Assembly: GCF_036321535.1 (NCBI RefSeq) | Contig: NC_087436.1 | Span: 20,896,001-20,960,000, forward strand | Length of the DNA stretch: 64,000 bases | DNA from: Camelus dromedarius | Taxonomy: Eukaryota | Reading direction: 5' to 3' | Part shown: one piece after another, positions 21,630 to 63,300 of the stretch | How positions within the stretch are numbered: the stretch's first letter is position 1 | Layout: every line of letters starts with the position of its first letter | Program-made: the position numbers and the translations under genes | Notes under the pieces: model-generated | Databases searched by the model: none | What the model saw: the letters and a program-made list of their open reading frames with translations, nothing else | What the model was told of the DNA's origin: nothing

Positions 21630-22612
21630 CTATTCAAACAACTCAATAGAAAAAACAAACAACCCAGTCAAAAAAAGGGCAGAAGACCTGAAAAGACATT
21701 TTTCCAAATAAGACATACAGATGGTTAATAGGCACATGAAAATATGCTCTACACTGGTAATTATTAGAGAAATGCTCCAAACAACAGTGAGATAATCACT
21801 TCACACTAGTCAGAATGGCCATCATCAAAAAGTCTACAAATAACAAATGTTGGTGAGGATGTGGAGAAAAAGGAACTCTTGTACATCATTGACAGGAATG
21901 TAAATTGGTGCAGCCATGGTGGAAAACAGTATAGAGGTTCCTCAAAAAACTAAAAACTACCACATAATCCAGCAATTCCACTCCTGGGCATATATCTAGA
22001 AAAATGAAAACACTCATTTGAAAAGATATATACACCCCCAATGTTCATAGCAGTGCTATTTATAATAGCCAAGATATGGAAGCAGCCTAAATGTCCAATG
22101 ACAGATGACTGGATAAAGAAGATGTGGTGTATATACATATACAATGGGACATTACTCAGCCATAAAAAAGAATGAAATTCTGCCATTTGCAGCAACATGG
22201 ATGGATCTACAAAACATTATGCTTAGTGAATTAAGTCAGACAGAGAAAGACAAGTACTGTATGTTATCACTTAAATGTGGAATCTAAAAATTAAAACAAA
22301 TAAATATATGTAGCAAAACAGAAACAGACTCACAGATATAGAAAACAAACTAGTGCCTACCAGTGGGGAGAGAGAAGGGAAGAGGGGCAAGATAGGAGTG
22401 GGTGATTAAGAGTTACAAATTACTATGTATAAAATAGACAAGCCACAATGATCTACTGTACAACACAGGGAATTATAGCTATTTTTTGCAGAATGGAGAA
22501 TAATCTATAAAATCTCTTTTAATGGAGAATAATCTATAAAAATATGGAATCACTCTGCTGTACACCTGAAATAAATATAATATTGCAAATCAACTATACT
22601 TCAATAAAAAAT
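21630..22612 (+). mobile_element. 5'-truncated L1 (ORF2 C-terminus and 3'UTR)
   Basis: Canonical L1 ORF2 3' sequence and ctatacttcaataaaaa tail. Confidence 0.92.
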
Positions 22613-22619
22613 TTTAAAA

Positions 22620-23410
22620 TCAAATTAAGAACTTCTGTTCCTCAGAAGACAACATTAAGATAGTGAAAGAGTGGGAGAAGATAATTATCTAGAGCATATA
22701 AAGAACGCCTAAAAATAAGTAAGAAAAATGCAGACAACTCAGTAGAGAAATGGCTTAAATGGCTTAAAAGACTTGAACAGGTACTTCATAAAGGGGGTAT
22801 CAACATACTCAAACATGCTTTGCTCATTAGTCACCAAGAAAATGAAAAGTAAACCACAACATAATACCATTAAACACCCAACAGACTAAACTCACTCTCT
22901 CTCTCTCTCTCAAAAACACATACTTGAATTTGCCGAAAGACTTAACTGGAATGTTCATAGCAGTGCTATTTGTAATAGCCCCAAACCAAACTGGATGTTA
23001 TCCAGATGTCTATCAGCGGTAGAGTGTATACATAAATTGTGACATATTTACTCAATGGAATTTTATACAGCATTGAGAATGAACGGTCTACAGGTGTATG
23101 CAACAATAGGGTAAATCTTGCAAAAAAAAATTCAGGAAAAATGCTGGATACAAAAAGTACCTACTGTACGATTCCATTTGTATAAATTACAAGAAGAGGG
23201 AAAAGTAAGCTATGCTGTTAGAATTCAGGATAGTGGTTAATCTCATGACTAGAAAGGAAGATGGGAGGGTTTCTAGGGTGGTGGCTAGGTTTGTTTTTGA
23301 TCTGGGTGCTAGTTTAACAAGTCTGTTCAGTTTGTGAAAAATTCATCAAGGGATATGCATTAAGATAAACACACATTTCCCTATACGTATTTTATATCCA
23401 TAAGAAGTTT
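22620..23410 (+). mobile_element. Older L1M fragment
   Basis: Degenerate ORF2 end and L1MC/ME-type 3'UTR motifs. Confidence 0.7.
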
Positions 23411-24818: not shown

Positions 24819-25025
24819 TTTTGTTCCATTGTATATATATTACCACATCTTCTTTATCCAACCTGTCGACGGACATTTAGATTGTTTCCATGTTTTCGCT
24901 GTTGTAAATAGTGCTTCTATGAACACTGGGGTGCATGTATCTTTTCCAATTAGAGTTTTCTCCAGATATATGCAGAACTACATTCAATATCTTGTAATAA
25001 CCTATAATGGAAAAAAACTAAAAAG

Positions 25026-25057
<32 letters not shown>

Positions 25058-25126
25058 ACTGAATCACTATGCTGTACACCAAAAACTAACACAAATTATA
25101 AATCAACTAAACTTTAACAACAACAA
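24819..25126 (+). mobile_element. 5'-inverted (twin-primed) short L1 inside an MaLR-like LTR
   Basis: Antisense L1 piece 24819 to about 24972, then sense 3'UTR; TSD aaaaagccaactctg at 24804-24818 and 25127-25141. Confidence 0.85.
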
Positions 25127-27512
25127 AAAAAGCCAACTCTGAAATAACTTCTGTTCATATTCCATCATTGGAAACAAATTGCATGGCTGCCCCAAGACGC
25201 AAGGAGAAAGTTTCAGGAACTAAAGTTCCTGACAGTGACCTCTGAGTGATCACGCCTCACTGTGGAAGAGGAAATGTGGGTTTTGGTGGCCACGTGGCCA
25301 CCTTCACCTCCATTGGTAGTGAACTGTACCATCAGACAGATGAAGAGTAAACTGAGGCTTGATTTTTCAGTTAAACTTGGAAGAGCAAGTGGAGTAGGGA
25401 AGGGTAGAGGTTAGAATAAGAGATTTGAGGCTGATCATGATTTTTCTTCTCTGCTTAAGAAATATTCATAACAATACACTTATTTATTCATTGACCAAAC
25501 AAGTATGTATAGAACATCTCGTAAGTTACAGATCTAGGTTCTATGGATCCAGCAGTAAACAAAACAAAGTTTCTGCCTCCCTGAAGCATACCTTCTAATG
25601 TAAGAGTCAAAAAACAAGCAAATACTCAAATAGATACAGAATGTCTTGTTGGAATGAGTGCTGTGAAGGGAAGTTGGGGAGGTAAGGGGATTGAGGATGA
25701 CAAAAGGGAAGATGTCTCTACGGAGGTGACAGCTGAGCAGAGGACAGAATGATGGGAGGAGGTGGCTGTTTAGGACACCTGAGCATAAAAAGCAAGCTTG
25801 ACCTTTCCAAGGAACAGCAGAATAGCCACCTCCATTTCAGTGGTGCTGCATGGGTTTAATTTATGCCATTCATGATGGGCTGCTTAGGAAAGAAGTACTG
25901 AGGACTGGAAAGAAGATCAACCTTGGAGCAAAACAGCATGGTTCAGAAACGGAGTCTGCCACCTAGAGCTGGTATTATTTTTTTGCAAATCATTAATGTA
26001 TTTGCTCCTCTGATTTTTTTTCACTAGCAAAACAATGAGACCTATCTCACTGAATTATGACAAGATATATGTACAAAATAATGCACATAAATTATTCCTG
26101 CTACACAGCACACTGCAAACATGCAGTAAATATTCATTACTCCTCCTTTCGCATTGGACCTAGGGGTGGTGAGTGGGAGATGATCTCTTTCCCTTCTTTC
26201 CATTCTTCCTCAAGCTGGACAACTTTCACGCCTTGTCCGTTTCCTAAGTCCTGACATTCTTTTCTCGTCTCAGACAGCTGGCCTTGCTTTGCAAAGATGA
26301 GGATGAGGAGAAGGACAGAATGGCAGTCATTCTACAAGGAGACGGACATTGGCATAGTCATCCCTCCATCTGTGAACCCCTCCTCTATAATTCACATCAT
26401 GTTTCTAGAGTTAAGGACTTGGTTGGGAGAAGCCAGACGTTCATGGCTCTGCACCACAGTGTGAAAGTAGAACTTCTAAGCAGGCCTCCTCCCCATTTTC
26501 ACTCTGTGTTCATTATTCATTCATTTCATTTAAGCTCTGGGACAGGCTCTTGTCCTTTGGAAAAGTGTTGGGGAAAGATGAGACCAGTGTGGGTTTTTTT
26601 CCTCAGACTCATCTTTGTGGATTCTCCATCAGCCTTGTGAATTGATCATGGCCAAGAAGCATTCATTGTCACACTGATTTGGTTTGGTTTGACACAGATA
26701 CGTATCTAGAAGTCCTACTGTGCTTCCACTGGAACAGGTGTGTATTAGACCACAAGCTACAGTCTGAATTACTCTGTAACGCATTGCTTTACATGCCATT
26801 TTGAGAGTACAGTCCCCCTCTTCTTTCCGAATGTGTTTATCATCACAGTGTATACTTGTACCTCTAAATTTGTCTCTTTGACTTAGTCGTTTGACAGCAA
26901 TATCCTCCAGGCATTTCTCCCCCTCCCTTCCCACCAAACCAGTAAGTCTGCAGCTCCCTGGGGCAGATCTCAGGGCTCTCCATCTCCTAGGAAGCACCTC
27001 GTTACACTCAAGAGTACAATACACCACAGGTCGTTAAACATTTAACTATTTATTTGCAGTTGTGGCTACCGACACCCGAGAGTCCTGGTTGTGAAGCCCT
27101 TTTTCTCAGTTTTAGCTCAGTTCTCAAGCTTTACCACATGACTAGCACTTAAAGATATGTTTACAGAGCCCTTTTGACTAGATTTTGTAACCATTCTTTT
27201 CACTTGCTTGGAGTCAAATCAAGTCTTCCTTTTTCCTTGGACTGGCCTATCCTATCTCCAAGACTCCTCTATCTCAGATACTGGGAAATACTTCAGTCAT
27301 TTCATTTTTTAGAACACTCACCAATTGAAACACACTGAATTGCAATCTCAGGACCTCAATGAGACCAACAGAACATCCAAAAGCATCATCATAATGGGGC
27401 TATGTGAACTCTGAAAATGTGAAAGAGTACTAGAACATCTCTGGCCTCTGTAACAGCAAGAGCCCATTCTCATGAAACAAGAAGGGCAGTCATTTCCTAG
27501 AGAACAGCTTAC

Positions 27513-27984: not shown

Positions 27985-28709
27985 CTAGGAAAGCTCTGTG
28001 CCTTGTACTCATTAAGTTTTTTTAAATAAATAACTGCTAAAAATCAATGAATTGGAGGATGGGAAGTTCCCTTAGCGATTGTCTAGCCTAGGCAGATGGT
28101 ACCTTTGATAAAGTGGGAAAACTGAAAAGCAAAAACATCTTCATGGTCGTCAACATAGGAGCCACTTATTACATTTGAATTTCTACAGAATACTCTAGGA
28201 AATACAGAGAGCTGTTCAATAAGAAATCAAAGTATAATCTCTTGATCCTAAGCTTAACTAATTGTACTAAATTAGAGGAATGAGTCAGTATTTTTTTCCT
28301 TTTAGTAAATAAATTGAGTTTTATTGGGACAACTTTGAGTCAATGTAAAAACATTAAAAGTTCAATATATTTTCTGAGGTTCTTTGGCATTTATGAAGAA
28401 TCTAATGAATAAAATACATGCTAACTATAAACATTTTGTGTGATAACAAAGATGATAAGGAAGACAATAAAACTGTTGTAGTCTTGCAACAGAGATAGGC
28501 AGTTAATATTCTGATATCTCCATATTGTTGACTATCATTATTTGAATAATTAAGTCTCTTTAATAGTCTTTATTTCACTCAGTTATTTTACCATCAGCAT
28601 TGTCCTACTGTGGTAGCCAGTGTCCAAGCCATCCTTCATTGATCCTTACCTCCTGCTACGCACACCTGGTGCAGTCCCTGCTCACTGCACCAAGACTGGA
28701 CTGTGCCAT

Positions 28710-29625
28710 CAACCTAAACAAGCAATTCTCCAGGGAATACATACAAATGATCAATAGGCACATGAAAAAATGCTCAATATCACCAATTATCAGAGAAATG
28801 CAAATCAAAACTACAATGAGGTATCACCTCACACCAGTCAGAATGGCCATCATTCAAAAATCCACAAATGACAAATGCTGGAGAGGCTGTGGAGAAAAGG
28901 GAACACTCCTACACTGCGGGTGGGAATGCAGTTTGGTGCAGCCACTGTGGAAAACAGTGTGGAGATTCCTCAAAAGACTAGGAATAGACTTACCGTATGA
29001 CCCAGGAATCCCACTCCTGGGCTTGTATCCAGAAGGAACCCTACTTCAGGATGACACCTGCACCCCAATGTTCATAGCAGCACTATTTACAATAGCCAAA
29101 ACATGGAAACAGCCTAAATGTCCATCAATAGATGACTGGATAAAGAAGAGGTGGTATATTTATACAATGGAATACTACTCAGCCATAAAAACCGACAACA
29201 TAATGCCATTTGCAGCAACATGGATGTTCCTGGAGAATGTCATTCTAAGTGAAGTAAGCCAGAAAGAGAAAGAAAAATACCATATGAGATCGCTTGTATG
29301 TGGAATCTAAAAAAAAAAAAAAAAAAAAAGCATAAATACAAAACAGAAATATACTCATAGACATAGAATAAAACTTGTGGTTGCCAAGGGGGCAGAGGGT
29401 GGGAAGGGATAGATGGGATTTCAAAATTGTAGAATAGATAAACAAGATTATACTGTATAGCACAGGGACATATATACAAGATCTTATGGTAGCTCACAGA
29501 GGAAAAAAATGTGACAATGAATATATGTATGTTCACGTATAACTGAAAAATTGTGCTCTACACTGGAATTTGACACAACATTGTAAAATGATTATAAATC
29601 AATAAAAAATGTGAAAAAAAAGAAA
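28710..29625 (+). mobile_element. Young 5'-truncated L1 with ORF2 C-terminus still open
   Basis: The 236-aa ORF matches the L1 ORF2 end (…[13 protein letters not shown]…[13 protein letters not shown]…); 3'UTR and poly-A present. Confidence 0.95.
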
Positions 29626-30813
29626 GAAAACTATTTTTAAGGGCTACCTAATATTCTGTCCTATAAAATGTACCATGATTTAATTGACTACATTATTCTT
29701 GGATTTTCAGGTTGGTCTTAATTTTCTGCTCCTTTATTTATTGCAGTATCCATCTTTTTGCAATTGTCTGTATCTGTGATTAGTTTCTTAGCACAGACTC
29801 AGAAATAAAATAAATAAAACTATTAACATTTTCAACACTTTTGACATTTATATATTATTTTCCAAATTTATGGTACTGAGTAGTCTCATCAATTTAAATT
29901 TTTGACTCATAAAAGGCAGATCTGTGATGTGACTGAATTGTATCTGTTTCTAGCACCAAATATTTCTGATGTATATTTAGCTGTTTGCCGTTTATTTTAA
30001 ATGCTAGTCTAGAAAAATTAAATCTTAATATCCATTTGCATTTTGATTATATCTGATGCTGCAACTATCCAATGCAAATACATCATCTTTCCCACCATAC
30101 TTGTTCTCTTTCTGTTTTTTTTTTCATCTCAAGGAATAGCTCCACCATCCTCATAGTCTACCAATCAGAAACCAGAGAGTCAGCTTAGTCTATTACCTGT
30201 ATCTCATCCCTTCCATACACTCTGTCCCTTATTTTTATACCTCCCTTTCCTTCCAGCCCCACTGCTGCTGCCTCAGTGCAAACCTTATTCAGCTCTCTTC
30301 CAGACTGATCCTCCCCTTCGATTTTCAGTCTTCTCTTACCCATGGCTCTACTTTGTGATAATGAATTTGTTACTCTTGGAAGCACTAATGATAACTTGAT
30401 GTTATTCAACTATAATCTCTTACAATTATCTTCTATTTTTAGGACTGTATTCCAGCACACCAGGATGCTAGTATTTCATGTATAAAAGACTGTACCTGCT
30501 TTCATGAAAAGACACCTGAACAAATTATACCTGCTGACCGTAGCAAGGCATGGCCTTCAATGACCATGTCAATGAACCGTCCCTGAGGATTTAAGGATTG
30601 CAGATGCAAGTCTCAGCAGCATCAAGGCAAAATCTACCCTGAGTGAGCATCATTCCTTTTTCCACCTCTCTCAGAACTTTCACTCTAGTTGGGGTTTTGT
30701 TGCACAACTGATTTGGCACAGACTGCAGGCAGCACCAGACAAAGTGTAGACAATGAGGAAACGTCACATGTTAAAGATGATGCATCATTTTCCCTGTGTC
30801 TTTCAACAGTTAC

Positions 30814-30997
30814 CTACATTGGAGAATTTTCATGTTCAGAGGAAGAAAGATTGTAGTTCTTCCAAGTAATAAAGTTAATTTTTGTTAATTATCATAAAAC
30901 TTTTCTCACAGAAAAAAAAAATGAATGCGGTATTAAATTTGGCTTTGGATTATCTGGTAATATTCTCATGTCAATTCTGGGCCATCTATTTTGTTGG
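30814..30997 (-). pseudogene. Pseudo-exon copy B of duplicated exon (NKIDGPELT*EYYQIIQSQI*...LYYLEELQSFFL...FSNV)
   Basis: Acceptor tctttggtcactacag, donor TAG|gtaact; paralogous to 32351-32552. Confidence 0.7.
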
Positions 30998-31925
30998 CTG
31001 TAGTGACCAAAGAGATGGAGTAAACACAGATGGAGTACAAGTTTGGATGTACCTTACAGGTATTGACCAGAATGTGGGATTTTTCATGTAGTCCCTCTAG
31101 CTGACTAGTATATAATAGAGCATATTTTAAAATGACGCCTTAACCAGAGCTAAAAACAAGTGTGTGCTTTAATTTCTATGGGCACAGAGATAATTTCCAT
31201 GGTTCAAGAGATGCATCTTCTAAGTTGAGGCGGTTTCTACTGAGACTAATGTAACTACAATTTGAAGAGACGTTCAAAGAATATATTTGAACGAGTCCCA
31301 TTTTGTTTGGTTCCTGTTATCTAAGCAGTCATTTTTCACTTTCAGTTAAAATTAGCCCAGAACATTCTTCAGGACAGCCCCCTGCATTCCTGACATATTT
31401 CCGCAAAGGGCCCTTGGTTGGAGGCCCCTATCCCCACAATAGATTATTTTTGGTCAGTTTTTTATTAATAATATTATTCATAGTTGTAGCTACTTTTTAT
31501 TTGACAAACCCAGTGCCAAAACCCATATGCACATTTCCTCATTTAATCCTCACACCAACACTGCAATGTATTTATTATTAATTTTTCCATCTTCTAAATG
31601 GAGAACCTGAAGCTCGGAGCTGAGCACGTTGACCACAGTCACAGAGTTAGAGGCAGTCACAAGCCGGCCTGGTGCCAAAGCAAGTTGTCTCAGTCCTGAC
31701 GCTGGTTCTCCTGGTGTGACTCGCTGCACGGTAACTTCATATCAGACTGACTTAGGACCTTGATTCTTCTAAGGTAACTCCTAAGACTTTGAACAAGTCA
31801 CTGTACATTAGGGCCCTGATTTATGAAGAAACATCCCTGCAGGGTATTAACGTGGATTTAACAAATTCCAATTCCTTCCTGCTCACAGGAGAGGCCTGTA
31901 TATATTCTGTGCTCTGCTGACTTAC

Positions 31926-32128
31926 ACGCTTGAGTCCTATTTTTAGTGCCTCCTCGGGGGTACACAATAATATTTCTCCCAGGGCACTGCTTTCTCAGGG
32001 TCTAACTCTCAAGTGAGGTCAGCTTTTGCCGGGATGGACTTGTGACTCGGTCTGCACAATTTAAGCTTTTCCTACACACACAGGAACTTCCGGAAGGGTC
32101 CCCTGCTCCTAGAAAGTCTATCATGAGC
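31926..32128 (-). pseudogene. Pseudo-exon between the duplicated exons (LMIDFLGAGDPSGSSCVCRK...LES*TLRKQCPGRNIIVY)
   Basis: Acceptor ttgttttag, donor T|gtaagt, 203 nt, phase 2 to 1, bridging both neighbours; one stop. Confidence 0.55.
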
Positions 32129-32350
32129 CTAAAACAACTAGCCTTTCCCAGACCAGTTTAGTGATATCTAATTGTCAAATAAATGTGTCTTTAAAAATAA
32201 AATGACATTTTAAAATGGTTTTCCATTCTTTAGAGTAATTAGGATCACAGGCCGTATTCAATCAGCCCCATGGTAGAACGTCCCATGGCCCCTGTTTTCC
32301 ATCTTGTCTTTCTCTTGTCCTTTTCCCTCCCACACTATGTATTCTCTTAC

Positions 32351-32552
32351 CGACCTTTGGAGTATTTTGGTGTTCAGAAGACGAGAGATGGTAGTTATTC
32401 CAAAAAAAATTAAGTTAGCTCTTTGTTAAATCATTATATGATTTTTCTTGGGAGGAAATGAATATTCTCTTCAATTTGGCTTTGGATTCTCTGGTAGAAT
32501 TCCTGTATCAGTTCTGGGCCATTTATTTGTTGCCTCAAGTTCCCCAAAAGAA
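32351..32552 (-). pseudogene. Pseudo-exon copy A of duplicated exon (LLGNLRQQINGPELIQEFYQRIQSQIEENIHFL...)
   Basis: Acceptor gcacttag (alternative exon start 32563), donor CG|gtaaga; aligns at DNA level with 30814-30997. Confidence 0.7.
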
Positions 32553-32579
32553 CTAAGTGCACACTAAACACAGGTTAAA

Positions 32580-32900
32580 GGTAACATTAATAATGACTGA
32601 TGTGTGATCAGCACTTTGTAGCTTACAAAGTACTTTTACAAATATTAAGTCATTTAACCCTACAACAACTTTCAATGAAAGGAAACAAAACTTTCCTTAA
32701 ATGTTTATTACAAGCTAGGCATGTTAGTGTTTTATATTTAGATGCTCCTTTAATCTTCACAAAAGTCCTTCAAGGCATGTATTATCTCTGTTTTACTGAC
32801 AATGAAACTGAGGTTCAGAGAGGTTAACTAACTTACCTAGCGTCAGACAGCTCTAGGATTCAAGCCAGGGTGTTGAGATGCAAAATCTGGTGCCTGCCCC
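32580..32900 (-). mobile_element. MIR SINE fragments (other MIRs near 1.6, 2.75, 11.8, 13.2, 26.0, 31.55, 40.85, 49.8, 55.1, 58.35 and 61.95 kb)
   Basis: MIR core aatgaaactgaggttcagagaggttaactaactt. Confidence 0.75.
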
Positions 32901-33333
32901 TGTGCTGTTTCTGACATCCCAGCCTACTAAGGTGGTCCGCAGATTCATCCCAAAGGACACAATCAAAGCCATGGGAGCCACAGCGTCTACCATATGCCTC
33001 ATTCCATAGTAACAATTTTTACTGTGTTAAGTAGAGAGGCTTACATGTCTATCCACATCCCCATTAGAGCTCTAAATTCTCTTCTCTGATGTTTCTTCCG
33101 TAAACTTCTTAATTTCAGATAAGTAAATTAATTCCTTCCTGGCTTTCCTTCCTATGCCACGGGAAGGTAAAAGACTAGTACAGGACGAAGATATATGAGT
33201 TTTCATTCCACTTCTAAATGTTTCTCAAGTTCATGGGTAACTCAATTGTACCAAGTTCTCATGTGCATCACTGCCCAGATTATTTATGTCCACTAACCAC
33301 CTCAGATGTGTACTCTGACTGGATCTGACTTAC

Positions 33334-33471
33334 CCAAAAGAGGACTGAGCACTTCTGGATGACCAAACTCATACTTTTTGCTACTTGCCGGAAGAGTACT
33401 GAAATAGTAACCTGAAATGGCCTCAGAACACACTCTGCTAATGAGCTGGTATAACATCAATTTTCTGTTTT
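33334..33471 (-). pseudogene. Pseudo-exon, open in phase 1 (ENRKLMLYQLISRVCSEAISGYYFSTLPASSKKYEFGHPEVLSPLL)
   Basis: Acceptor ctattaaag, donor TGG|gtaagt, 138 nt with no stop in this frame. Confidence 0.5.
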
Positions 33472-34663
33472 CTTTAATAGACAGAAGTCCTACTTTGTGA
33501 TTTAGACAAAGGAGGGTGACTAGGTGAGTGAGGCACTTGGGTGGGATGAACTTTAAAATCGCTTGAATCCAGAAATCCCTGGAATAAATCCCACCTGATA
33601 GTGGTGTATGATCCTTTTTTTAAATAATAATAATAATAATAGTAAAATATATCACTCGAAAAGAAATTTTCTCTCTTAATACCTTCTAAGACAAATTTTA
33701 GAAACAATACATAACTGATTTTGTCCCAAATGATAAGTTTATACACACAAATGCATGTATATGTGTGTGATTGTGTATATATACTTCATTATCAAGTAAA
33801 ATCGCCTTTATGATAATGAGGAAAATAGTCCCATAAGTCTGAAGTGTAATAAGAGTGAAATAAACTTAATGAGTGTTTTGAAGTATCTGAATCACTATAA
33901 ATACAAATGCAAACCCAAGTTTCCAGTAGACTTTAGAATACATGGCCTATGAAATTCCATAAAAGACCAGCTTTCAGATATGAGATCTTCAATATGAGAC
34001 TTTCTATATAAATATTTCCTTTAAGTTAACAGCTATTGCATGGTAATAGTTTCTAGGACAGCATGACCTGCAGTCGGTAGTTTTGCATTTAACTAAACTT
34101 TTCACACGAATCATACAGCAGGTTCCCGACAACATGTTTCCAAATGTGTCTCCTAAGATACAGTGGAAAATGTGACTTTTATTTACAACTTAATAAATAA
34201 CTCAATGATGTGAAGTGTTTTAAGTACAGCAATGTGCTACTTTAAACAAAGTACTGAAAATATATAACTGACTGTGTCTCGTTGTTTTCACTTCTTTTAA
34301 GGTTTAGATTTCCTTTGCCCGCCTGTCTGATTTAACTTGAAAAAAAAAAAAAACTTATGGAAAGTGGGAACCTTGGATACTTCAAAGTTAACCAAGATCA
34401 AAGTCCAATGAGGTCCCCTGAAGAAGGAACAAACCAGCCTGAAAAATGTGTCGCGTTGATACTGGCTTGAAGTCTCTTAGTTTACAGTTTTGTACCAAAG
34501 CCTCGACCTTGGATTTATCAGTTATCTAAGCGCTGGGCTTTCTTATGGAAAAGAACAGTTGGCACAGTTTTCCCGGGAATTCAAGCACAGACTCATCCAC
34601 ATGAGCAGGTAACTAATTTCTCACTTGGTAAGTGAAACACTGACAAGGTGAGAGGCTTCTTAC

Positions 34664-35457: not shown

Positions 35458-36059
35458 AAGTTACCAATAATCTTTATGACTTTGGTGACCTCTAGTGATC
35501 AAAACAGAGAACAAACGTACCAGCTTTGTTTTCCTTGTGGAGAAGAGGGGTCTTCCAAAGTCAGGAAGTGTAGATTCGTTTTCATTTTTCGACTCAGTCT
35601 TTAAATAATGGGTTTTTTATTAGTAAACAGAAATGTATTCTCATGGTAGAACATTTAATAAGCAAAAGGAGAAAAAAAATCTCAATATTTGAGAGTATTT
35701 TTTTCGGTCTTTTTTCTATATATTTACATACAGGTTCCCACCAACTCACAAAAATAGGTAATTCTCTACAAAAGGATCATACAGGACAATTATTTTGCAA
35801 TGTATATTTTTTTACAGTATATGGAAATGTTAATATACTCTTTCAAATTGTAGTTTTAATAGTATGTTGTGACTGTCTTCCCATGTCATTAACTATCCTT
35901 CTACACATTATTTGTATTGATTATAGTATTTCATGATAATTTGTGTAAGCATTTCTCTATTACTGGCTATTTAAACTGGTTTTTTTTTTTTCTATTATCC
36001 CTGGAGCTAATTCTTTGCACTCTGCCAGCATTAGAGCATAAAGCCTTTTATTCTTTCTT

Positions 36060-36260
36060 TTTTTTTATTTTTTAAAAACATTTTGTTATTGAAGTATAGT
36101 TGATGTACAATGTTGTGTTAGTTTCTAGTGTACAGCAAAGTGATTCGGTTATACATGTATATATCCTTTTTCATACTCTCATTCATTATAGATTAGTACA
36201 AGATACTGAATGTAGTTCCTGGTGCTATACAGTAAGATCTTGTTTATTCATTTTATATAA
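36060..36260 (-). mobile_element. Short L1 3' fragment
   Basis: attgaagtatagttgatgtacaatgttgtg L1 3'UTR in reverse. Confidence 0.85.
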
Positions 36261-37016
36261 GATAAAGTCTTAGAAATGAAGCCTCTGATTTTAAAAATGT
36301 GCAAAACAGAATGGTTTTTGACACATAATATCTAATTGCCAGATAATTCTAAGAAAGAAATGGTCACCTAGACACAATAATAGTGCCCTCCAATGGGAGC
36401 ATGTGGTGAGCTGGGAACTCCTTGGCAGCCAGTCTGCATGCAGAGCTGCCACCCAAGCATGAAGGGCCTGTGGCTGAAGAAGAAACCAAGAATAAGCAAG
36501 ATGCTGCGTGTGAGCTGTGGAACAGCACTTGCCCATCAATGCAAGGTTATGCCACTTGGAAAAAAAGGAATAAATAGAGACTTATCAGATTCCGAGGAAC
36601 TCTGTTTTGTAAACACCTTTAAACATAGGGTTCCCACATCAGCAAAAATCCTCTAATTTGACACAAGGTATCCATTCACCAGCTATCAGCTGAAGGTTAT
36701 ATGCAGAAAGTGTTTGCTAAAGGCTTAATTTGTTTTCATGGTTTTTGCATTCACGGGGTAAATACAAAGTTCTCTTTTTCATCTCTATGGAGATGCATAG
36801 GTTAGGGAAATTTTGCCATATAGGGGTAAGTAGGGAGAACAGAGTATCTGAACAACTTTTTTGGCAATTATCAGAGTAAGGGTAGCACCCTGTGAAATAT
36901 TTTCTAAATGTGTAAATTAAACTTGCTGACCATACTACTCTAAGTTTACAATGTCAAAGACACGTACTGTATTCAGCAACCACACTACATGTCATCTCCC
37001 TCCCAGGAGGACGTAC

Positions 37017-37702: not shown

Positions 37703-38240
37703 GCAAACAACCCAAATGCCCATCAACAGATGCCTTGATAAAGAAGCTGTGGTATATTTATACTATGGAATACTATTCAGCCACAAAAAAGAATAAAATA
37801 ATGCCATTTGCAGCAACATGGATGGACCTGGAGATCAACATTCTAAGTGAAGTAAGCCAGAAATTGAAAGAAAAATACTATAAATCACTCATATGTGGAA
37901 TCAAAAAAAGAAAAAAGAAGACACTAATAAACTTATGTACAAAACAGAAATAGACTCACCGATATAGAAAACAAACTTATGGTTACTGTGGGGGAAAGGA
38001 GGTGGGAAGGGATAAATTGGGACTTGTAGATTTACAAATATTAACTATTATTTATAAAATAAACAAGTTTCTTCTGTATAGCACAGGGAACTATATTCTA
38101 TATCTTTAGTAACCCATAATGAAAAAGAATATGGAAATGAATATATGTTTGTATATGAATGATTGAAACATTATGCTGTGTACCAGAAATTGACACACTG
38201 TAAACTGACTATACTTCAATAAAAAAAAAAAAAAAAGAAG
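37703..38240 (+). mobile_element. 5'-truncated L1 with TSD
   Basis: ORF2 end, 3'UTR and poly-A; TSD aagaagaaccagc at 37690-37702 and 38241-38253. Confidence 0.92.
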
Positions 38241-42795: not shown

Positions 42796-42905
42796 GGGGA
42801 GGGTATAGCTCAGCGGTAGAGCGCATGCCTAGCACGCATGAGGTCCTGGATGGCATCCCCAGTGCCTCCATTAAAACAAACAAACAAATAAAATTTAAAA
42901 AAAAA
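42796..42905 (+). mobile_element. tRNA-derived SINE (camelid Vic-1-like)
   Basis: ggggagggtatagctcagcggtagagcgcatgcctagcacgcatgaggtcctgg with A-rich tail; TSD aacagtgttRgaaatcag at 42778-42795 and 42906-42923. Confidence 0.85.
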
Positions 42906-43077: not shown

Positions 43078-44073
43078 ATAACTGTTCCATCAAACTGCAC
43101 ACTTCAAATGTATGTGTTACATTTCAATAAAAAATAAATGTAAGAGGATCACTGTTCTGTACATCAGAAACGAACACAACCCTGTAAATCAACTATACTT
43201 CAACTTTTTTAAATGTAAGAATTTACTGTATATTTATCCTTTATCTTTTGCGGATAAGCTACCCCCAGTATTTCTTCATGTAGAGAACCAGGGCCAACTG
43301 CATGTTTACAAAGGTAACGGGCAGAGTGAACCGACCTCCTAGACACTGCAAAGTGCAAACGTGCACATCGTGTGTCCTTAGAATTTCAAACAGTTGTGCA
43401 AACTACTACAGTGCTGTCTCTCAATTCCAGACCATTACTCCTGCTGCCTTCTCTGCCTGGAATGTGCCCTCTTCTCCCTTGACCTGGTTACTCACTCTCC
43501 AGGTCTCATTGCTCTCTCTGGAAAGCCTTTCCAGAACGCTGTATTTGAGTTAAGAGCCTCTCATGTGCTCCCAGAGTGCCCTTTGCCCACTATCACACAG
43601 CCCTGGACACTCCATAGTGTCCAGAACTGCCTTCTTTCGTGTTTGTTTCCCAGGTAAGCTGTAAGTTCCTGCAGGGAAACTCGAACTTCGGAAGGTTGTA
43701 TCCCCAGCACTTGGCAGGAGTTCACTAATCATTTGCTGCATCATTAAACGGATGCAGAACAAAATAGACCTGTTTAATCCTTAGCTGAAAGACGACACAT
43801 GATTCCTGATTCCAGGAGGATAATACAATGGGCTTAGAGGCAGCCTGGAGCCGTTGTTCACTGCCTACTCACCACGTAGTGAGAGTTTCCAACTTCTTCA
43901 GTGTTATTTAGCATGCCTCCAAAACACAGCACATTATGTTAAAATTGTAAAGAAAGGAAACCAGGACCTGGGTGAAATCTCATAGCTAAAGGATCTTGAA
44001 CAGTCTCCTAACTGTCTAAACTGGATTTGCAAGCCCAAATGCAGAAAGGAGCTAGACAGAGAGTATCAATGAA

Positions 44074-51800: not shown

Positions 51801-52749
51801 TTGACCCCCATGAGCCTCAGTTTCCTCCTGCCTATTTAATAAAACACAGAATAAATAGATGGCATCGAAAATCCCTTTCATCTCTAAACTTCAGTGACAC
51901 CTCAAGGTCAGCCTGAGATGATCTGTAGATTAGTTACCACACCTATAAAGCTCTAGCTTAGGGTGAAATTGGATTTTTAGAGAGAAATGAACACTCCACT
52001 ATGAACTCCTGGGGAAAAATTTCTAAGAGGGGAAAGAAGAGACTGTATCTCGAAATTGACTCACACTGATTTGAATTTGGGAAGTTGAATTTAACATTCT
52101 TGCCATGGATTTTTTTTCCTTTGCTTTCTAGAGGATTCTTGAAAACATCTATGAATCTACTGGAGATGCACATTTTAAATAATTTTCCTAAATGTCTTTA
52201 TAGGTTATATTTTAACTGCATCTCCTCAAACGAGCCCTAACACTCAAAGTCCAGGTAAGTTACCAACAAAAGCAGATGGATACTAGATTTCCAGCCATTA
52301 TTATCATATCCATATATTTAATAAGTACTTATCTGTGTGGTTTTCTGTGATAAATGAACTAAATCAAAACTAAAGCAAAAATACAGAAGAGAAACATCCC
52401 AGGGTTCTCTCTCAGTGTTGGGATTGGAGGTAATTTTTTTCCCTGCTTTTTAATACTTTCTAAATTTTCTGTGAAAATAATCATAAAATATAATTAGGAA
52501 AAGTTTAAAAACTCTTTAAATTAAACATACACAATCTCTGCTTTCTAAGATGTCTCTATCATTAAGCAATGCTGACAAACATTAACAGAGGAAGACCTAG
52601 ATTCCAGCATATTTATTGCATTGTGCTTATTACGACTCAAATAACTTGGTTGTGATATATACTGAAACTGATTTCAGGGACCTGATAGAGAAAAGAGAAT
52701 TGATAGTAAACATATGAGATAACCCACAGTTTATATTTTCCCATTTTCT

Positions 52750-54395
52750 GTTTTTTTTAATTGAAATATAGTTGATTTAAAATATTATGTTACTTTCAAG
52801 TGTACAACATAGTGATTCAATATTTTTACAGATTTTACTCCATTTATAGTTATTATAAAATATTGGCTATATTCCCTGTCCTGTACAATATGTCCTTGTA
52901 GCTTATTTATTTCATACAGAGTAGTTCATACCTCTTAATCCCCTACCTGTATTTTGCCCCTCCCCACTTCCCTCTCCCTACTAGTAACCACTAGTTTGTT
53001 CTCTATATCTGTGAGCCTATTTCTGTTTTGTTTTATTCATTCATTTTATTTTTCAGATTCCACATATAAGGGATAACATACAGTATCTGTCTGTCCCTGT
53101 TTGACTTATTTCACTAAGCATACCCTTTAGGTCCCTTCACATTGTTGCAAATGACAGAGTTTCATTCTTTTTTATGACTGAGTAATATTCCAGTGTATGT
53201 ATATATGTGTGTGTGTGTGTATCTCATCTTCTTTATCCAGTCATCTGTTGATGGACACTTAGATTGCTTCCACATCTTGGCAATTGTAAATAGTGCTGTT
53301 ATGAACACTGAGGTGCATGTATCTTTTCAAATTTGTGTTTTCATTTTCTTTGGATATATACCCAGGAGTGGAATTGCTGGGTCATATGGCAATTCTATTC
53401 TTAGTTTATTAAGAAACTTCCATACTGTTTTCCACAATGGCTGCAGCACAAATTTACATTCCCACCAACGGTCTACAAGGGTTCTATTTTCTCCATAGCC
53501 TTATTAATATTTGTTATTTGGAGACTGTTTTTTTAGGAATTTTATTTTATTTTTTTAATTGAAGTATAGTCAGTTTACAATGTATCAATTTGTGGTGTGC
53601 AGCATAATGTTTCAGTCATACATATACATACATATATTCCTTTTCATATTCTTTTTCATTATATGTTACTATAAGATATTGAATATAGTTCTCTGTGCTA
53701 TGCAGAAGAAACTTGTTGTTTATCTACTTTATAAATAGTAGTTAATATATGCAAATCTCAAACTCCCAATTTATCCCTTCTTACCCCCTTTCCCCCCTGG
53801 TAACCATAAGTTTGTTTACTATGTCTGTGCGCCTGTTTCTGTTTTATAGATAAGTTCATTAGTGTCTTCTTTTTGCTTTTTTTGATTCCACATATGAGTG
53901 ATATCATATGGTATTTTTCTTTCTTTTTCTGGCTTACTTCACTTAGAATGATGATCTCCAGGTCCATCCACGCTGCTGCAAATGGCATTATTTTATTCTT
54001 TTTTATGGCTGAGTAGTATTCCATTATTTAAATATACCACAGCTTCTATACCCAGTCAACTGTTGATGGACATTTCAGTTGTTTCCATGTCTTGGCTATT
54101 GTATATAGTGCTGCTATGAACATTGGGGTGCATGTATCTTTCAAATTAGAGTTCCCTCCAGATATATGCCCAGGAGTGGGATTGCTGGCTTATCATACAG
54201 TAAGTCTGTTTTTAGTTTTTTGAGGACTCTCCATACTGTTTTCCACATTCTTACAGATGTGAGGTAAAATCTCATTGTGGTTTTGATTTGCATGTCTTTC
54301 ATGATTAGCAACGTTGAGCATCTTTTCATGTGCTTATTGGCCAACAGTATGTCTTCTTTGGGAAAGGCCCATTTTCCATCTTTTAGAGTACTTAT
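52750..54395 (-). mobile_element. Nested L1s: younger L1 3' end (about 53540-54247) inside an older L1
   Basis: Two reverse L1 3'UTR/poly-T starts; the older ORF2 sequence resumes at cattcttacagatgtgagg. Confidence 0.85.
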
Positions 54396-54739
54396 TTCTG
54401 TTATGATACAGTAACTAACCCTCAAGTCCCCGGCTGCCACACTCCAGTAGCTAAGGGTATCAGAAAAGTGGCAGCATCTAGAACCTTAGGATGCTTTATT
54501 CACTGAGAGACTCCTATGACATCATGGGAGTCAGGCAGTGTTCGTCCTATACCTGTCTCAGAAAAGTAAATGACTCCAAAAACACTGCAAGCCCCAAACC
54601 ATAAAACATTCTTCTGTCAGTCACCAAGCACCATACCAACTCTCAGTGCAAAAGTGCAGGAGGAGAGTTCTGACCTCATCTTGTCTAGAGCCTTGTCTCC
54701 CTTAATATTTTAGATCAGACAGTTCTTTCATCATTTAAT

Positions 54740-54975
54740 GGTCTTGGCACCCATGCTAAAAATCAATTACCACAGATACAGGTTCATTTCTAGACTCTCA
54801 ATTCTATTCCATTGATTCTTAGAGCAATACCACACTGTTTCGATTACCACTGCTTTGTAGTAAGTTTTGGAATTGTAAGGTGTAGATCATCCATCTTTGC
54901 ACTTTTTTAAGGTTATTTTGGCTATTCGGGGTCCCTAGCAATTCCATATGAATTTTAAGGTCAATTTTTCTCTTC
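54740..54975 (-). mobile_element. L1 ORF2 fragment
   Basis: Reverse L1 motifs (ccacactgtttcgattaccactgctttgtagtaagttttg). Confidence 0.75.
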
Positions 54976-56967: not shown

Positions 56968-57291
56968 ATCAGGGGCCAAATCCAACCTACCACCTGGCTT
57001 TGTATAGCCTGAAAATTAAGAATGCTTTTTACAATTCTAAGTGCATAAAAAAATCAAAAGAGTAATAATGGTTTGTGACATGTGGATAGTCTATGAAATT
57101 AAAATTTGAGTGTCCATAAATAACTATTGGAATACAGCTGTACTCATTCACTAGTACGTTGGCTGACGTATTGTCTGTGGCTGCTGTGGCACTGTGACAA
57201 TGGAATTAAGAGCTGTAACAGAGACTGTCCTGCAAAGCCTAAATTTTTATTCATTCTCCCTTTCCAGAAAAAAAAAGTTGACCACTCTTGC
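56968..57291 (+). mobile_element. hAT MITE (MER58B-like) next to a MER5-like remnant (about 56865-56965)
   Basis: ggggccaaatccaacctaccacctggctttgta ... gcaaagcctaaa...aaaagttgaccactcttg. Confidence 0.75.
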
Positions 57292-59559: not shown

Positions 59560-60388
59560 AACTAAAAGAGTTCAGCAATAGTAAACCTATGCTAAAAGAA
59601 ATATTGAAAGATCTGTTCTAAATAGACAAGAAGCAGAGAGCTATACAAATGAGAAAACCATAAGTGGAAATGGGATAACTATAATGAGTTACAAGAGAAT
59701 AAACATGAAGATGTTAAAAAAAAAAGGACATCAAAATTATAAAAGGTGAGACAGGGGAGCAAGAAAATACAGATTTTTTTCCTCTCTCTTCTTTTTTTTT
59801 TTCTTTTTTCTTTCTTTTCTTTTCTTTTTTTTTTTTTTCTCATTCTTTTTAGGATGTGTTTGAGCCTACATGACTACCAGTCTAAAGCAAACAGATATAG
59901 TAAGGGGTTAACATACCTGAAAAACAAGGTAACCACAAATCAAAAGCACACAGTAGAGTCACAAAAAAACAAAAAGAAACCAAGCTAATACAAAAGAAAA
60001 CTATCAAACCAGAAAAATACCATATGATATCACTTATATGTGGAATCTAAAAAAAAAAAAAAAGACAAACAAATTTATTTACAAAACAGAAACAGACTCA
60101 CAGACAAAGAAAACAAACTTATGGTTACCGGGGGTGGGGAAGGGAGTGGGAAGGGATAAATTGGGAGTTCAAGATTTGCAGATATTAATTAACATATATA
60201 AAATAGGTAAACAACAAGCTCATACTGTATAGCACAGGGAACAATATTCAATATCTTGTAGTAACCTATGGTGAAAAAGAATATGAAAATGAATATATGT
60301 ATGCTCATGTATGACTGAAGAATTGTGCTGTACACCAGAAATTGACACAGCATTGTAAACTGACTCTAGCTCAATAAAAATATATATT
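59560..60388 (+). mobile_element. Internally deleted L1: ORF1 end and inter-ORF spacer fused directly to the ORF2 tail/3'UTR
   Basis: KLKEFSNSKPMLKEILKDLF* (L1 ORF1 C-terminus), spacer, then agaaaaataccatatgatatcac at about 60010 and the 3'UTR. Confidence 0.8.
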
Positions 60389-63300
60389 TAAGAGTTCAAA
60401 AAAACAATTTACACTTGGAAAATTTAGTTTTCTGACCTGGAAACTATGAAGGCTTTTCCTATGCAGAGTATACCCTTGTAAGAGTTTGCTTTTGTAAGAT
60501 AAGACTTCTATCAACTGCAAGTCAGGAGGGAACCAAACTGAAACTCACAGCTGCGTGAGCTGACCTTATCACAGCGTGACAGGAGCTCGGCTAATGGAAA
60601 TTTGGGCAATTTCCAAAAACTGCAGGGTATTTGTCCAACACTGCATCTTGCATTCATCCTAACGACACTCCCCATGAGAAATGCCAGCTGTTTGGGAGAG
60701 CCGTGTGGTTTAGTGGCTAGAGCACAGAGGAGAGTGCTAGGAGACTGGACCTCTACTCCCTATCATGTCCTCACCCACAAGTCACCCCGCCTCCTCCGAA
60801 CACCGGGAACAGCGGCAGGGGCCCTGTCGTGCTCCCTCTTACAACGCCCAGGCATCTCAGGCTGGTAGCGTTTCCGTGAGCACCTGTGAGGTCAGAGCAG
60901 TGAGGATGAGAGACCAAAGAGGTGAATGTTCTGAAACAATTCATGTTACACAAGTATGAGATGATACCACCATGCAAATTTGGAATATTTAATATTCTGG
61001 GTGGTGTATTGACTAATTTGTTCCCTCTTACCAAATCTAAAACTATGGGATTCAGTTCAAGTCACAAATACGTACTTGCCAAGTACCAAAGCAAATGCCA
61101 TTTCAGTATCTTGGGACTGAAAAAAATTTTTTAACCAGGAGTCTGAGGCCTTCCCAAACCTTCCCTTCCATTCCATTTGGTGTTAATTTGCCACCTGAAC
61201 ATTAAACTCTTATCAGTTAGCTGCCCCTCAGCCTCCACGTAAATGCACACTCTCTTTCTCCGTATTTTATCCCATGCTATTCCTTTACCTTAATTCCTCC
61301 TCCTCCACATTTCCACCAAAAACTCTACCTATCCTTCAAGTTTCAGCCAGTGATTCACCGCAAGAAGGTGTGGGGTAGGGACTCCAGTGTAAGTTTTCAG
61401 AGCCCAGTGCAGCTAAGGAAATGTGCAGGGTTGGCTCAAGGCCCATCTCTGTTCCGGGCTGGTCAGATGCTGGATACATCTTCCATGATATCTCAAGTTA
61501 AATGTGCATCTCTTGGGCAGAGAGGTGGAATTTTTCAGGTATAGTCTGGATGTGTTCCCACAAAAGAAGTGGGGAATTAAGAAAAGGACCCTCATATCAG
61601 TATTGCTAGAGCAGAAAACAGTTTTTCTCAGTGGTTACAGGAAGAAGACACTGAGGGCTAAGAGATAATGGAAGAACTGCAATAAATTGTAAAAATTTGT
61701 GTAAAAAGTCATCAAAATGAAGACTGCATTATTATTATAAAAATTCTAGTACACAGGATGTTTGGGAATCTCAAGGAATTTAGTTGTCTTTTTTGTGTGT
61801 ACCATGCACCCTTATGTTCACCAACTAATATGCTAAAACACGAAGGAAATCTTGCTGACAAGATCTCAACCAGGCAGAGACTTAGGAAGTGGGCATATTA
61901 TTGCAAGGCAGCAGAATTACGTTTCAGTTCTGTCCCATACCAGCTGTGTTAAACTGAGCGAATCATCCAATTTTCACGATATCAAATTTCTTCTTTGTAA
62001 AGTAAGAAAGTTGGAGTAGATGTTCCAAGAGACCTTGTATGGTAATATGTAAAAGTACATTTTGAATTAATTGGGATAATATTTAGATTGACCTTTACTC
62101 AGGGAACAATGCAGACAAGTCGAAAGCTGATTAAGCAACAGAAAGGGAGGGGCCCAGAGTATAAGAGGACAAAAAGCAGAAGAGAAACCCCTCTGTAATC
62201 CAGGCCCTAAGAGGTTCAGGAAAACTGCGTCCATTGCTTAATGGTAACATATTTGCTCAGATGGCCCAGTGGAAGATTCTGTTGTAAAAAGCCCTGTTTA
62301 AAATAAGCTTAGTCACAGAAATTTTGCAACTCTGCATTACTGAACATGTCCCCAGATGTCATTAGCTGATTAGGGTCTTAGGAACCTGGGAGCGTCAGAT
62401 AGACATGAGGGCTATCAATGTAGCATCAGAACATTCTTGGTGCTTGCTGGGGATATGTTTTGTGGAGCTTGGGGTTCCTTACCTTGGATTTTGAAAGTAG
62501 CTTAAGCATCTGAGGATGTAGAAAGAGACATTTCTTTTGTTTTTCCTGAGTGACATCTTCCAACCAGGGGTTGGTTTATTTAATTTGAGGTGCTCGATAA
62601 ACTTCTTTAAATTCTTTAATTGTGAATCTATTTTAGAATAACCAGCATGTTCTTTAAATGCAATTAAATCCTAGAAAATATAAAAGCTTATCTGTGTGAT
62701 CAGAGCCTGTGTCCTTTCAAACTGACACTGGGAACTCTGAAGCCTCTGAGCGTTCCTCATACCACTCACCAAGCACAGGTATTAATCCCTATTGAAATAC
62801 TTATACAAGGTTATCTGTTTTTTCAGAATATGAAAGAAAAACTAACTATGACAAAGGTCATTTTACAGATCAGCTACCGAAATTAGATGGTTAAGGAAAT
62901 GATGTTAAAAATATTTTTTATCAAGTTATTCTTAGATCATTTATTTATTTACTATAAATAAGTATTTATTTACTTACTGTGCTGGTGGTTTTAGGTGACC
63001 GTGTTATGAAATTGTATCAGACAATTAAATCTGGAGAATTAAAGCAAGTATTTCTAAGATCATAAGTGGAAAATTTCAGCCTCAAATCAGTTTGGCAACC
63101 AACCAGTTTTTACAGAATATGCCGCTCACAGATGGGACTTGGCTAAAGTCTGCACAATTTGTTTGAAATTGCAAGGACTGTGACTGTGTTACTCTAAACA
63201 ATGTATTGCCTTCAATATTAGATATTCCTGAGTTCTGACTTCAATTTAGAGCCTTGGGACTTCTGCCTCTACTTCTTCGGAACAAAATTTCCACTAAATG

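Follow-up and report, generated by a model that had tools for sequence, protein, structure and literature searches.

A short proximal duplication in dromedary DNA, possibly of repair-mediated origin

The window, by which we mean the whole stretch of 64,000 nucleotides of Camelus dromedarius DNA analysed here, contains two copies of a block of about 240 bp that lie in the same orientation some 1.3 kb apart, between flanks that are unrelated to one another (Table 1). The differences between the copies are spread evenly over the codon positions, and most of the gaps that separate them break the reading frame. We give a probability of about one half to the reading that the pair is a 'doublet', an old and short proximal duplicate that arose through repair and is neutral-looking in both copies. 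Repair as the mechanism, the neutrality of the copies and the age of the pair are what we infer here; the template may at first have been an exon that was already dead, a relic of a LINE or intergenic DNA.

Table 1. Coordinates of the block copies, splice-like sites, candidate exons and LINE-1 pieces in the window. Donor percentiles are ranks among the minus-strand GT sites, scored with a rough matrix.
Feature	Position	Strand	Details
Copy 1 of the block	30810..31050		about 240 bp; blastn core 30810-31015, extension to about 31043-31050
Copy 2 of the block	32347..32582		same orientation as copy 1; gap of about 1.3 kb, offset 1537 bp
Donor-like sites, copy 1 end	30808..30817	-	TAG/GTAACT (first intron base 30813), 97th percentile; AAT/GTAGGT at 30817, 95th percentile
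Donor-like sites, copy 2 end	32345..32354	-	TCG/GTAAGA (first intron base 32350), 98th percentile; AAG/GTCGGT at 32354, 96th percentile
Candidate exon of the initial annotation, copy 1	30814..30997	-	184 nt; acceptor CAG 30998-31000, 97th percentile
Candidate exon, copy 2	32351..32563	-	213 nt; acceptor TTTAG 32564-32568, 85th percentile
LINE-1 ORF2 relic	33568..33617	-	50 nt, 1 kb from copy 2; IIHHDQVGFIPG motif (start of the RT domain)
LINE-1 piece	54731-54958	-	LINE-1 pieces of the window are of differing ages
LINE-1 pieces	21686-22630, 24822-25131, 28712-29630, 36059-36265, 37705-38239, 52744-54365, 60011-60406		

Extent and divergence of the duplicated block

When the window was compared with itself by blastn, 30810-31015 aligned with 32347-32551 over 211 columns at 72.0% identity (E 8.1e-21). 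The local alignment score of the pair was 108, against a maximum of 29 among 209 other 300-bp tiles of the window. The initial annotation had described an ancient tandem exon duplication of roughly 180 nt. The existence of the pair is confirmed, with only two copies in the window, and so are the motifs quoted for it; the GPEL..QSQI peptides that it reported are both present on the minus strand. The alignment over about 180 nt is real, but the block is longer, at about 240 bp, and runs about 50 nt past the copy-1 exon of 184 nt. The observation as a whole is thus partly confirmed, as a real duplicate that extends further than had been stated.

A more permissive alignment stretches the block to 31043/32576, and P0005, a database reading frame described below, aligns to copy 2 until 32582 and to copy 1 until 31071. 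P0005 is collinear with 31071-30832 of copy 1 and aligns to both copies across the extension of about 50 nt, by which the block continues beyond the acceptor at 30997, to about 31050/32582, with 29 of the 49 aligned bases identical there. Beyond the block nothing was found in common: all six flank comparisons stayed at the chance level, 28-100% of random tiles scoring as high, and the similarity does not run into the flanks, as the initial annotation had held.

Copy 1 and copy 2 are identical at 54 of 66 positions in block A, at 60 of 75 in block B and at 22 of 37 in the linker, and of the nine gaps between them eight have a length not divisible by 3. In the 64-kb window, a profile built from both copies found no third one; its next match (E 0.21) came from 57050-57290, which by eye we take to be a piece of a MER58-like DNA transposon. 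A possible third copy near 33720 (IIWDK) was rejected because its scores were equalled or exceeded by 12% and 68% of random tiles, and a reading as MITE or SINE was rejected because the copies have no terminal inverted repeat in common. Directly to the right of copy 2, at 32596..32900, lie what by eye we take to be MIR-like repeats; their alignments with further pieces of this kind in the window are at 58-63%. Pairs of MIR-like pieces reach about 56-63% in the longer matches within the window and are thus more diverged than the 72% pair, so that the block would be younger than those repeats or would have been held longer.

A probable orthologue in another mammal

The NRWPR frame of copy 1, searched with phmmer against 1.84 billion representatives, gave two matches. 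One of these, P0006, was dropped as a low-complexity repeat with 24% identity. The other, P0005 (82 aa, 62%, E 7e-14), is an unnamed Logan ORF with two variants that are almost the same and lie on contigs of about 1.65 kb; with this one frame no protein relatives other than its cluster were found among the 1.84 billion representatives. Counted in minimal changes, P0005 is 27 away from copy 1 over 207 nt (3 gap events) and 30 away from copy 2 over 195 nt (7 gap events); by the same metric, 31 changes and 8 gap events in 195 nt separate the two copies. Relative to P0005 the indels sum to +3 and -3 nt, and over block A it has 18 of 20 residues in common with copy 1. From these alignments, P0005 is probably the orthologue of copy 1 in another mammal. 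Since the paralogues are barely further apart than these probable orthologues, the duplication would slightly predate the split between this lineage and the mammal of P0005.

P0005 keeps the NRWPR/WKNY frame open for 82 codons, 67 of them across the candidate exon. Stretches of 79 codons in the window are stop-free in 1.6% of cases, a figure to be read with the caveat that protein databases receive open frames only. Word searches in which three shared 5-mers were required gave 2 candidates and 0 matches for the GPEL-to-WNNY read-through of copy 2 among proteins of 112-2000 aa, and nothing for the open GPEL stretch among proteins of 25-81 aa, from which distant relatives can escape. Pfam and PDB sequence searches with the block frames found no family or structure match. 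The best ESM Atlas value for P0005 was 0.79, and its AlphaFold model (pLDDT 58, pTM 0.33) was too poor for a structure search. Orthologous DNA was sought in metagenomes, where peptide patterns gave 109 candidates with 0 confirmed and a DNA pattern scan gave 0 related loci out of 97. No further related exons were found in the window. On the plus strand, a 70-codon open frame crosses block A of copy 1 (30879-31088), with ATGAAT in that frame in both copies, and the plus-strand ORF of 70 aa was without a usable match in the ESM Atlas.

Codon positions and reading frames

According to the initial annotation, similarity confined to an exon implied past coding constraint, and a codon-aware alignment was to test for a bias towards third positions. 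No such bias was found. In the minus-strand NRWPR...WKNY frame, the best of the six, the differences are distributed 17/16/17 over the three codon positions in 64 codons, and the GPEL frame gives 15/19/17. The spread is flat in all six frames, with best-of-six P values of 0.41, 0.57 and 0.35 for three spans. With differences spread so evenly, the restriction of the similarity to the block is no proof of past coding constraint here, and repair-mediated duplication yields the same geometry. The GPEL reading through the block also fails, with four stops in copy 1 and an identical TAA common to both copies at 30887. The earlier interpretation is therefore partly supported at best, coding constraint being unsupported and the GPEL frame unlikely.

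The count of synonymous codons is highest in the NRWPR/WKNY frame, at 11 against 4-8 in the others, with a single-frame P of 0.075 (0.046 without the linker, 0.13 for the exon first proposed). In block B, the same frame has 4 synonymous codons (P 0.046), and the GPEL frame has 7 over the block (P 0.61). No identical stop is common to the copies in the NRWPR/WKNY frame, and the aligned codons at 30894 and 30891 are stops in both, though differing ones. If the duplication were old, with flanks saturated by change and exons under coding selection, at least about 40% of third positions would be expected to differ, and 17 or fewer third-position differences out of 64 would have a P of 0.018 under an expectation of 40%, which is our own assumption. 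Coding on the plus strand was rejected, since in each of the plus frames both copies carry a stop at an aligned position.

Splice-like sites at the block edges

The drop of similarity at the minus-strand donors, which had been reported from the first reading of the letters, holds: the left edge of the block falls within 4 nt of a G/GTAA donor-like site in both copies. The site of copy 2 is homologous to that of copy 1 and is thus not an independent observation. A random 10-nt segment contains such a donor-like site 1.3-1.6% of the time per strand, and with two possible ends we estimate the chance of finding one at a block edge at roughly 3%.

The donor is common to both copies, whereas the candidate acceptors are non-homologous (30997 versus 32563). 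The AG of copy 2 that aligns to the copy-1 acceptor is below the listing cut-off of the splice-site scoring, and P0005 has a Gly where copy 1 reads AGC, so that the acceptor of copy 1 is lost in P0005. Copy 1 has no AG where that of the copy-2 acceptor aligns, whereas P0005 has an AG-compatible codon pair there, and the right edge of the block lies about 20 nt past the acceptor-like site of copy 2. Judging from the alignment with P0005, the 213-nt candidate exon of copy 2 would be of phase 1-1 in the NRWPR/WKNY frame. A plus-strand acceptor at 30810 (99th percentile) and a plus-strand donor at 32581 (97th percentile) also bracket the block; sites of equal strength on the other strand indicate that such sites are common here.

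Setting of the window

The GC content of the window is 39.8%, and several LINE-1 3' ends occur in it. An ORF at 28789-29241 matches human L1 ORF2p (E 2e-73), and 28567-29310 is a still open frame of 247 codons that matches the ORF2p C-terminus. By human gene order, the window would be placed upstream of FREM3 and near GYPA; GYPA transmembrane motifs were not found in it. Rfam RF00005 matches at 42799-42870 (+) with 43 bits; by eye, this tRNA-like head would belong to a lineage-specific SINE. At 43873-43916 (minus), also by eye, 44 nt lie between an AG that follows a pyrimidine-rich run and a GTGAGT donor-like site.

Repair-mediated copying as a possible origin

Under the reading that we favour, a double-strand break would have occurred in the germ line, and the broken end would have been extended by about 240 bp along a template 1.3 kb away. 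The copied stretch would have been fixed at the break, and both copies would then have drifted without detectable coding constraint. The event would be old, having taken place shortly before the split from the mammal of P0005. If only about 240 bp were copied, the flanks were never homologous, and repair-mediated copying would give block-limited similarity without the need for coding constraint or for a gene.

PMC2671141 describes repair-mediated duplicates of 162 bp in the mean and at most 619 bp, whose distance to the donor averages 1.2 kb, and attributes them to strand invasion of a nearby template during break repair. It reports the class in primates, cow, dog and rodents, 53 of the 1,136 human cases being common to a non-primate mammal. 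According to the same source whole exons are also copied in this way, so that the block could once have had an exon as its source. The pair described here, at about 240 bp, lies within the size range of the class (50 to about 620 bp), and with a gap of about 1.3 kb and an offset of 1537 bp it also falls inside the separation of donor from acceptor in that class, above 50 bp and below 5 kb. At the acceptor, members of the class interrupt an older sequence and show microhomology, filler or a small deletion; with the window as the only DNA compared, neither an empty site nor an interrupted host repeat came to light here. As in the class, there is no polyA/T tail at the block ends. A target-site duplication of 6 nt or more was not found at either copy, and in an empty-site test with the joined flanks within the window no junction-spanning match rose above background (best scores 1427 and 1602 versus 1742 and 1902 for non-spanning matches).

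The K2P distance between the copies is 0.33 over 225 aligned bases. Provided that both copies are neutral, the pair would be 75 million years old at a rate of 2.2e-9 per year. At the camel rate quoted in PMC8605555, the age would be 33 million years under the same condition of neutrality. A term search for the human interval in the supplements of PMC2671141 returned 0 places, although such a search may miss tab-separated coordinates and an orthologous case might be listed among the 143 chr4 entries.

Alternative readings

The alternative that survives best, although we consider it doubtful, is that the blocks are two tandem symmetric exons of phase 1-1, about 213-222 nt long, from a lost minus-strand gene that was read in the NRWPRID...ILP(D/E)NPKPN...W(K/N)NY.LSSSEH frame and not in the GPEL frame. 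The block ends at the common G/GTAA donor-like sites, copy 2 also ends just past an acceptor-like site, and a 213-nt candidate exon can be drawn in copy 2, but the acceptor lies at different places in the two copies and the plus-strand acceptor (30810) and donor (32581) around the block are equally strong. P0005 is open across 67 codons of the candidate exon with frame-neutral net indels, and the NRWPR/WKNY frame is the best of six for synonymous changes and has no identical common stop; against this stand the lack of third-position bias (17/16/17) and the two aligned codons, 30894 and 30891, that are non-identical stops in both copies. The exons would have been duplicated or homogenised shortly before the death of their gene, so that little synonymous excess accumulated. 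Reproductive-tissue RNA runs of one study contain 0.35-0.45 of the sampled words of 29700-34000, which is a lead only; runs with a small share of these words are no evidence. No family or structure match, no parent protein and no further related exon in the window were found for the proposed gene.

Taken to its full extent, this reading would make the blocks the last readable exons of an undescribed gene upstream of FREM3, built of tandem 73-residue modules on symmetric phase-1 exons. The gene would have died around the radiation of the placental orders and left no surviving close relative in the protein libraries, with P0005 keeping the copy-1 frame almost open. We regard this as rather unlikely. 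Nothing on a lost gene at this locus was found in the literature that we searched, including a term search of PMC10195156. Were the exon reading true, it would mark a lost and unnamed gene of mammals near FREM3, a matter of moderate interest for studies of gene loss.

A second alternative, which we hold to be improbable, is that both blocks come from a decayed LINE-1-type ORF2 stretch just before and at the start of the reverse transcriptase, either as one relic that was locally duplicated or as two pieces of an old repeat family. GPEL..EFYQ would then be a worn form of the ORF2 motif GPDGFT.EFYQ, and the reading is compatible with a second copy made by repair. When the two-copy DNA profile was run on five fetched LINE loci, the top match fell on the GPDGFT.EFYQ motif (E 0.22). 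Against a 300-nt ORF2 stretch of two mammalian L1 pieces, three of four comparisons beat all but 1.4-4.2% of 520 tiles. However, the fourth stood at 21% of tiles, the triplet-shuffle P values were 0.035, 0.07, 0.47 and 0.038, and register at the motif is kept only by the copy-1 alignments and by a single one for copy 2. At the protein level, the ORF2 profile scores 0.2 bits or less, blastp gives no match, hhalign gives a probability below 1%, and the frameshift-aware ORF2 comparisons rank at 19% and 45% of 532 tiles. Moreover, the lead arose from a motif already known, so that the test site was not chosen blind, and a single database cluster instead of many argues against a high-copy family.

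A real LINE-1 ORF2 relic does occur 1 kb away on the same strand (33568-33617; tblastn E 0.002 with 12 of 18 residues identical, nhmmer E 0.0015 with the fetched L1 pieces). About 50 nt upstream of this relic, a KRENF stretch resembles by eye the ENF that precedes the motif in ORF2. Mammalian-type LINE-1 ORF2 was also seen in a 1,726-bp contig of a bacterial genome record (L108) and in a viral-contig collection (L109), the two being 77% identical over 120 residues, which is probably contamination of those public records. Three large viral contigs (L110-L112; 186-211 kb) contain an L1/Tx1-like non-LTR retroelement ORF.

It is still less probable that the blocks are duplicated non-coding functional elements, such as enhancer modules or long non-coding RNA exons, preserved as nucleotide sequence. 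The higher identity of blocks A (54/66) and B (60/75) than of the linker (22/37) speaks for such elements, as do the agreement of P0005 with copy 1 over block A and the share of unmapped words from 29700-34000 in the RNA runs. Uneven identity is, however, expected near homopolymer runs, the consensus fold is weak (-7.25 kcal/mol over 246 columns, from two sequences), and no Rfam family was found at the block.

We see very little chance that the blocks are exons of a lost chromodomain gene, each with the C-terminal helix of one domain (GPEL frame) and the strands of the next (WKNY frame). The initial annotation had likened the peptides to the C-terminal helix of the chromodomain, a likeness that gained no support, as there is no Pfam Chromo match and no PDB chromodomain, and a profile of 227 domains gives 0.2 bits in the real splice order, with block B of copy 2 ahead of block A of copy 1. 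On the expected parts of that profile, the better-preserved halves reach 5.9 and 6.4 bits, and with block B of copy 1 ahead of block A of copy 2 the score is 12.1 bits, which none of 8,000 random pairs attained; an independent profile of four sequences gave 5.3 bits, its other value being -1.1 bits. However, there is some circularity in the 227-domain profile, whose members were retrieved with an alignment that included these pieces, and 12 bits are not significant against a library of 25,000 families. The reading also requires a frameshift inside both copies, the chromodomain TWE motif faces EHE in the alignment, and the aromatic-cage Trp is absent. Single frames had no Pfam match to the chromo shadow domain (PF01393), and in a chromo-anchored search the 120 listed out of 288 matches were all ordinary chromodomain proteins by their Pfam annotation. 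Equally weak look-alikes, namely the PARP14 macrodomain (E 0.13) and the INGPE motif of AAA (E 1.2), were rejected as chance. With four families fitting equally weakly, such likeness is at chance level for short decayed peptides, and none of the four is usable as a name.

Comparison with known systems

If the pair is a repair duplicate, it is one more of many. It would then serve as a caution that a sharp-edged similarity beside a splice-like site does not by itself amount to a lost exon, and that short decayed peptides can resemble several families equally well.

The chromodomain (PF00385; HP1/CBX type) resembles the block in that W(K/N)NY recalls WKGY and PELIQEF recalls PELI.EF, but in the block these parts are reversed in order and lie in different frames, and TWE is missing. 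LINE-1 ORF2 before the RT (L108, L109) has the GP...EFYQ arrangement, and about 75 columns of copy 1 show borderline similarity to it as DNA; unlike a true ORF2 piece, the block has no significant protein or profile match, and several deletions would have to be assumed to explain the spacing of the later motifs. The pair can also be set beside tandem exon duplications in unitary pseudogenes, a general class to which it is alike in the donor-like end of both copies, the possible symmetric exon of 213 nt and the block-limited similarity, and unlike in the absence of third-position bias, in the shifted acceptor and in that no parent protein was found. As for the repair-mediated duplicates of Pace, Sen, Batzer and Feschotte (2009, PMC2671141; the 'doublets' of Thomas et al. 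cited there), the pair, at 72% identity, is far more diverged than those cases, which are mostly of primate age. In other respects it is like them: short, close together and set between unrelated flanks, with no target-site duplication found and no coding constraint seen.
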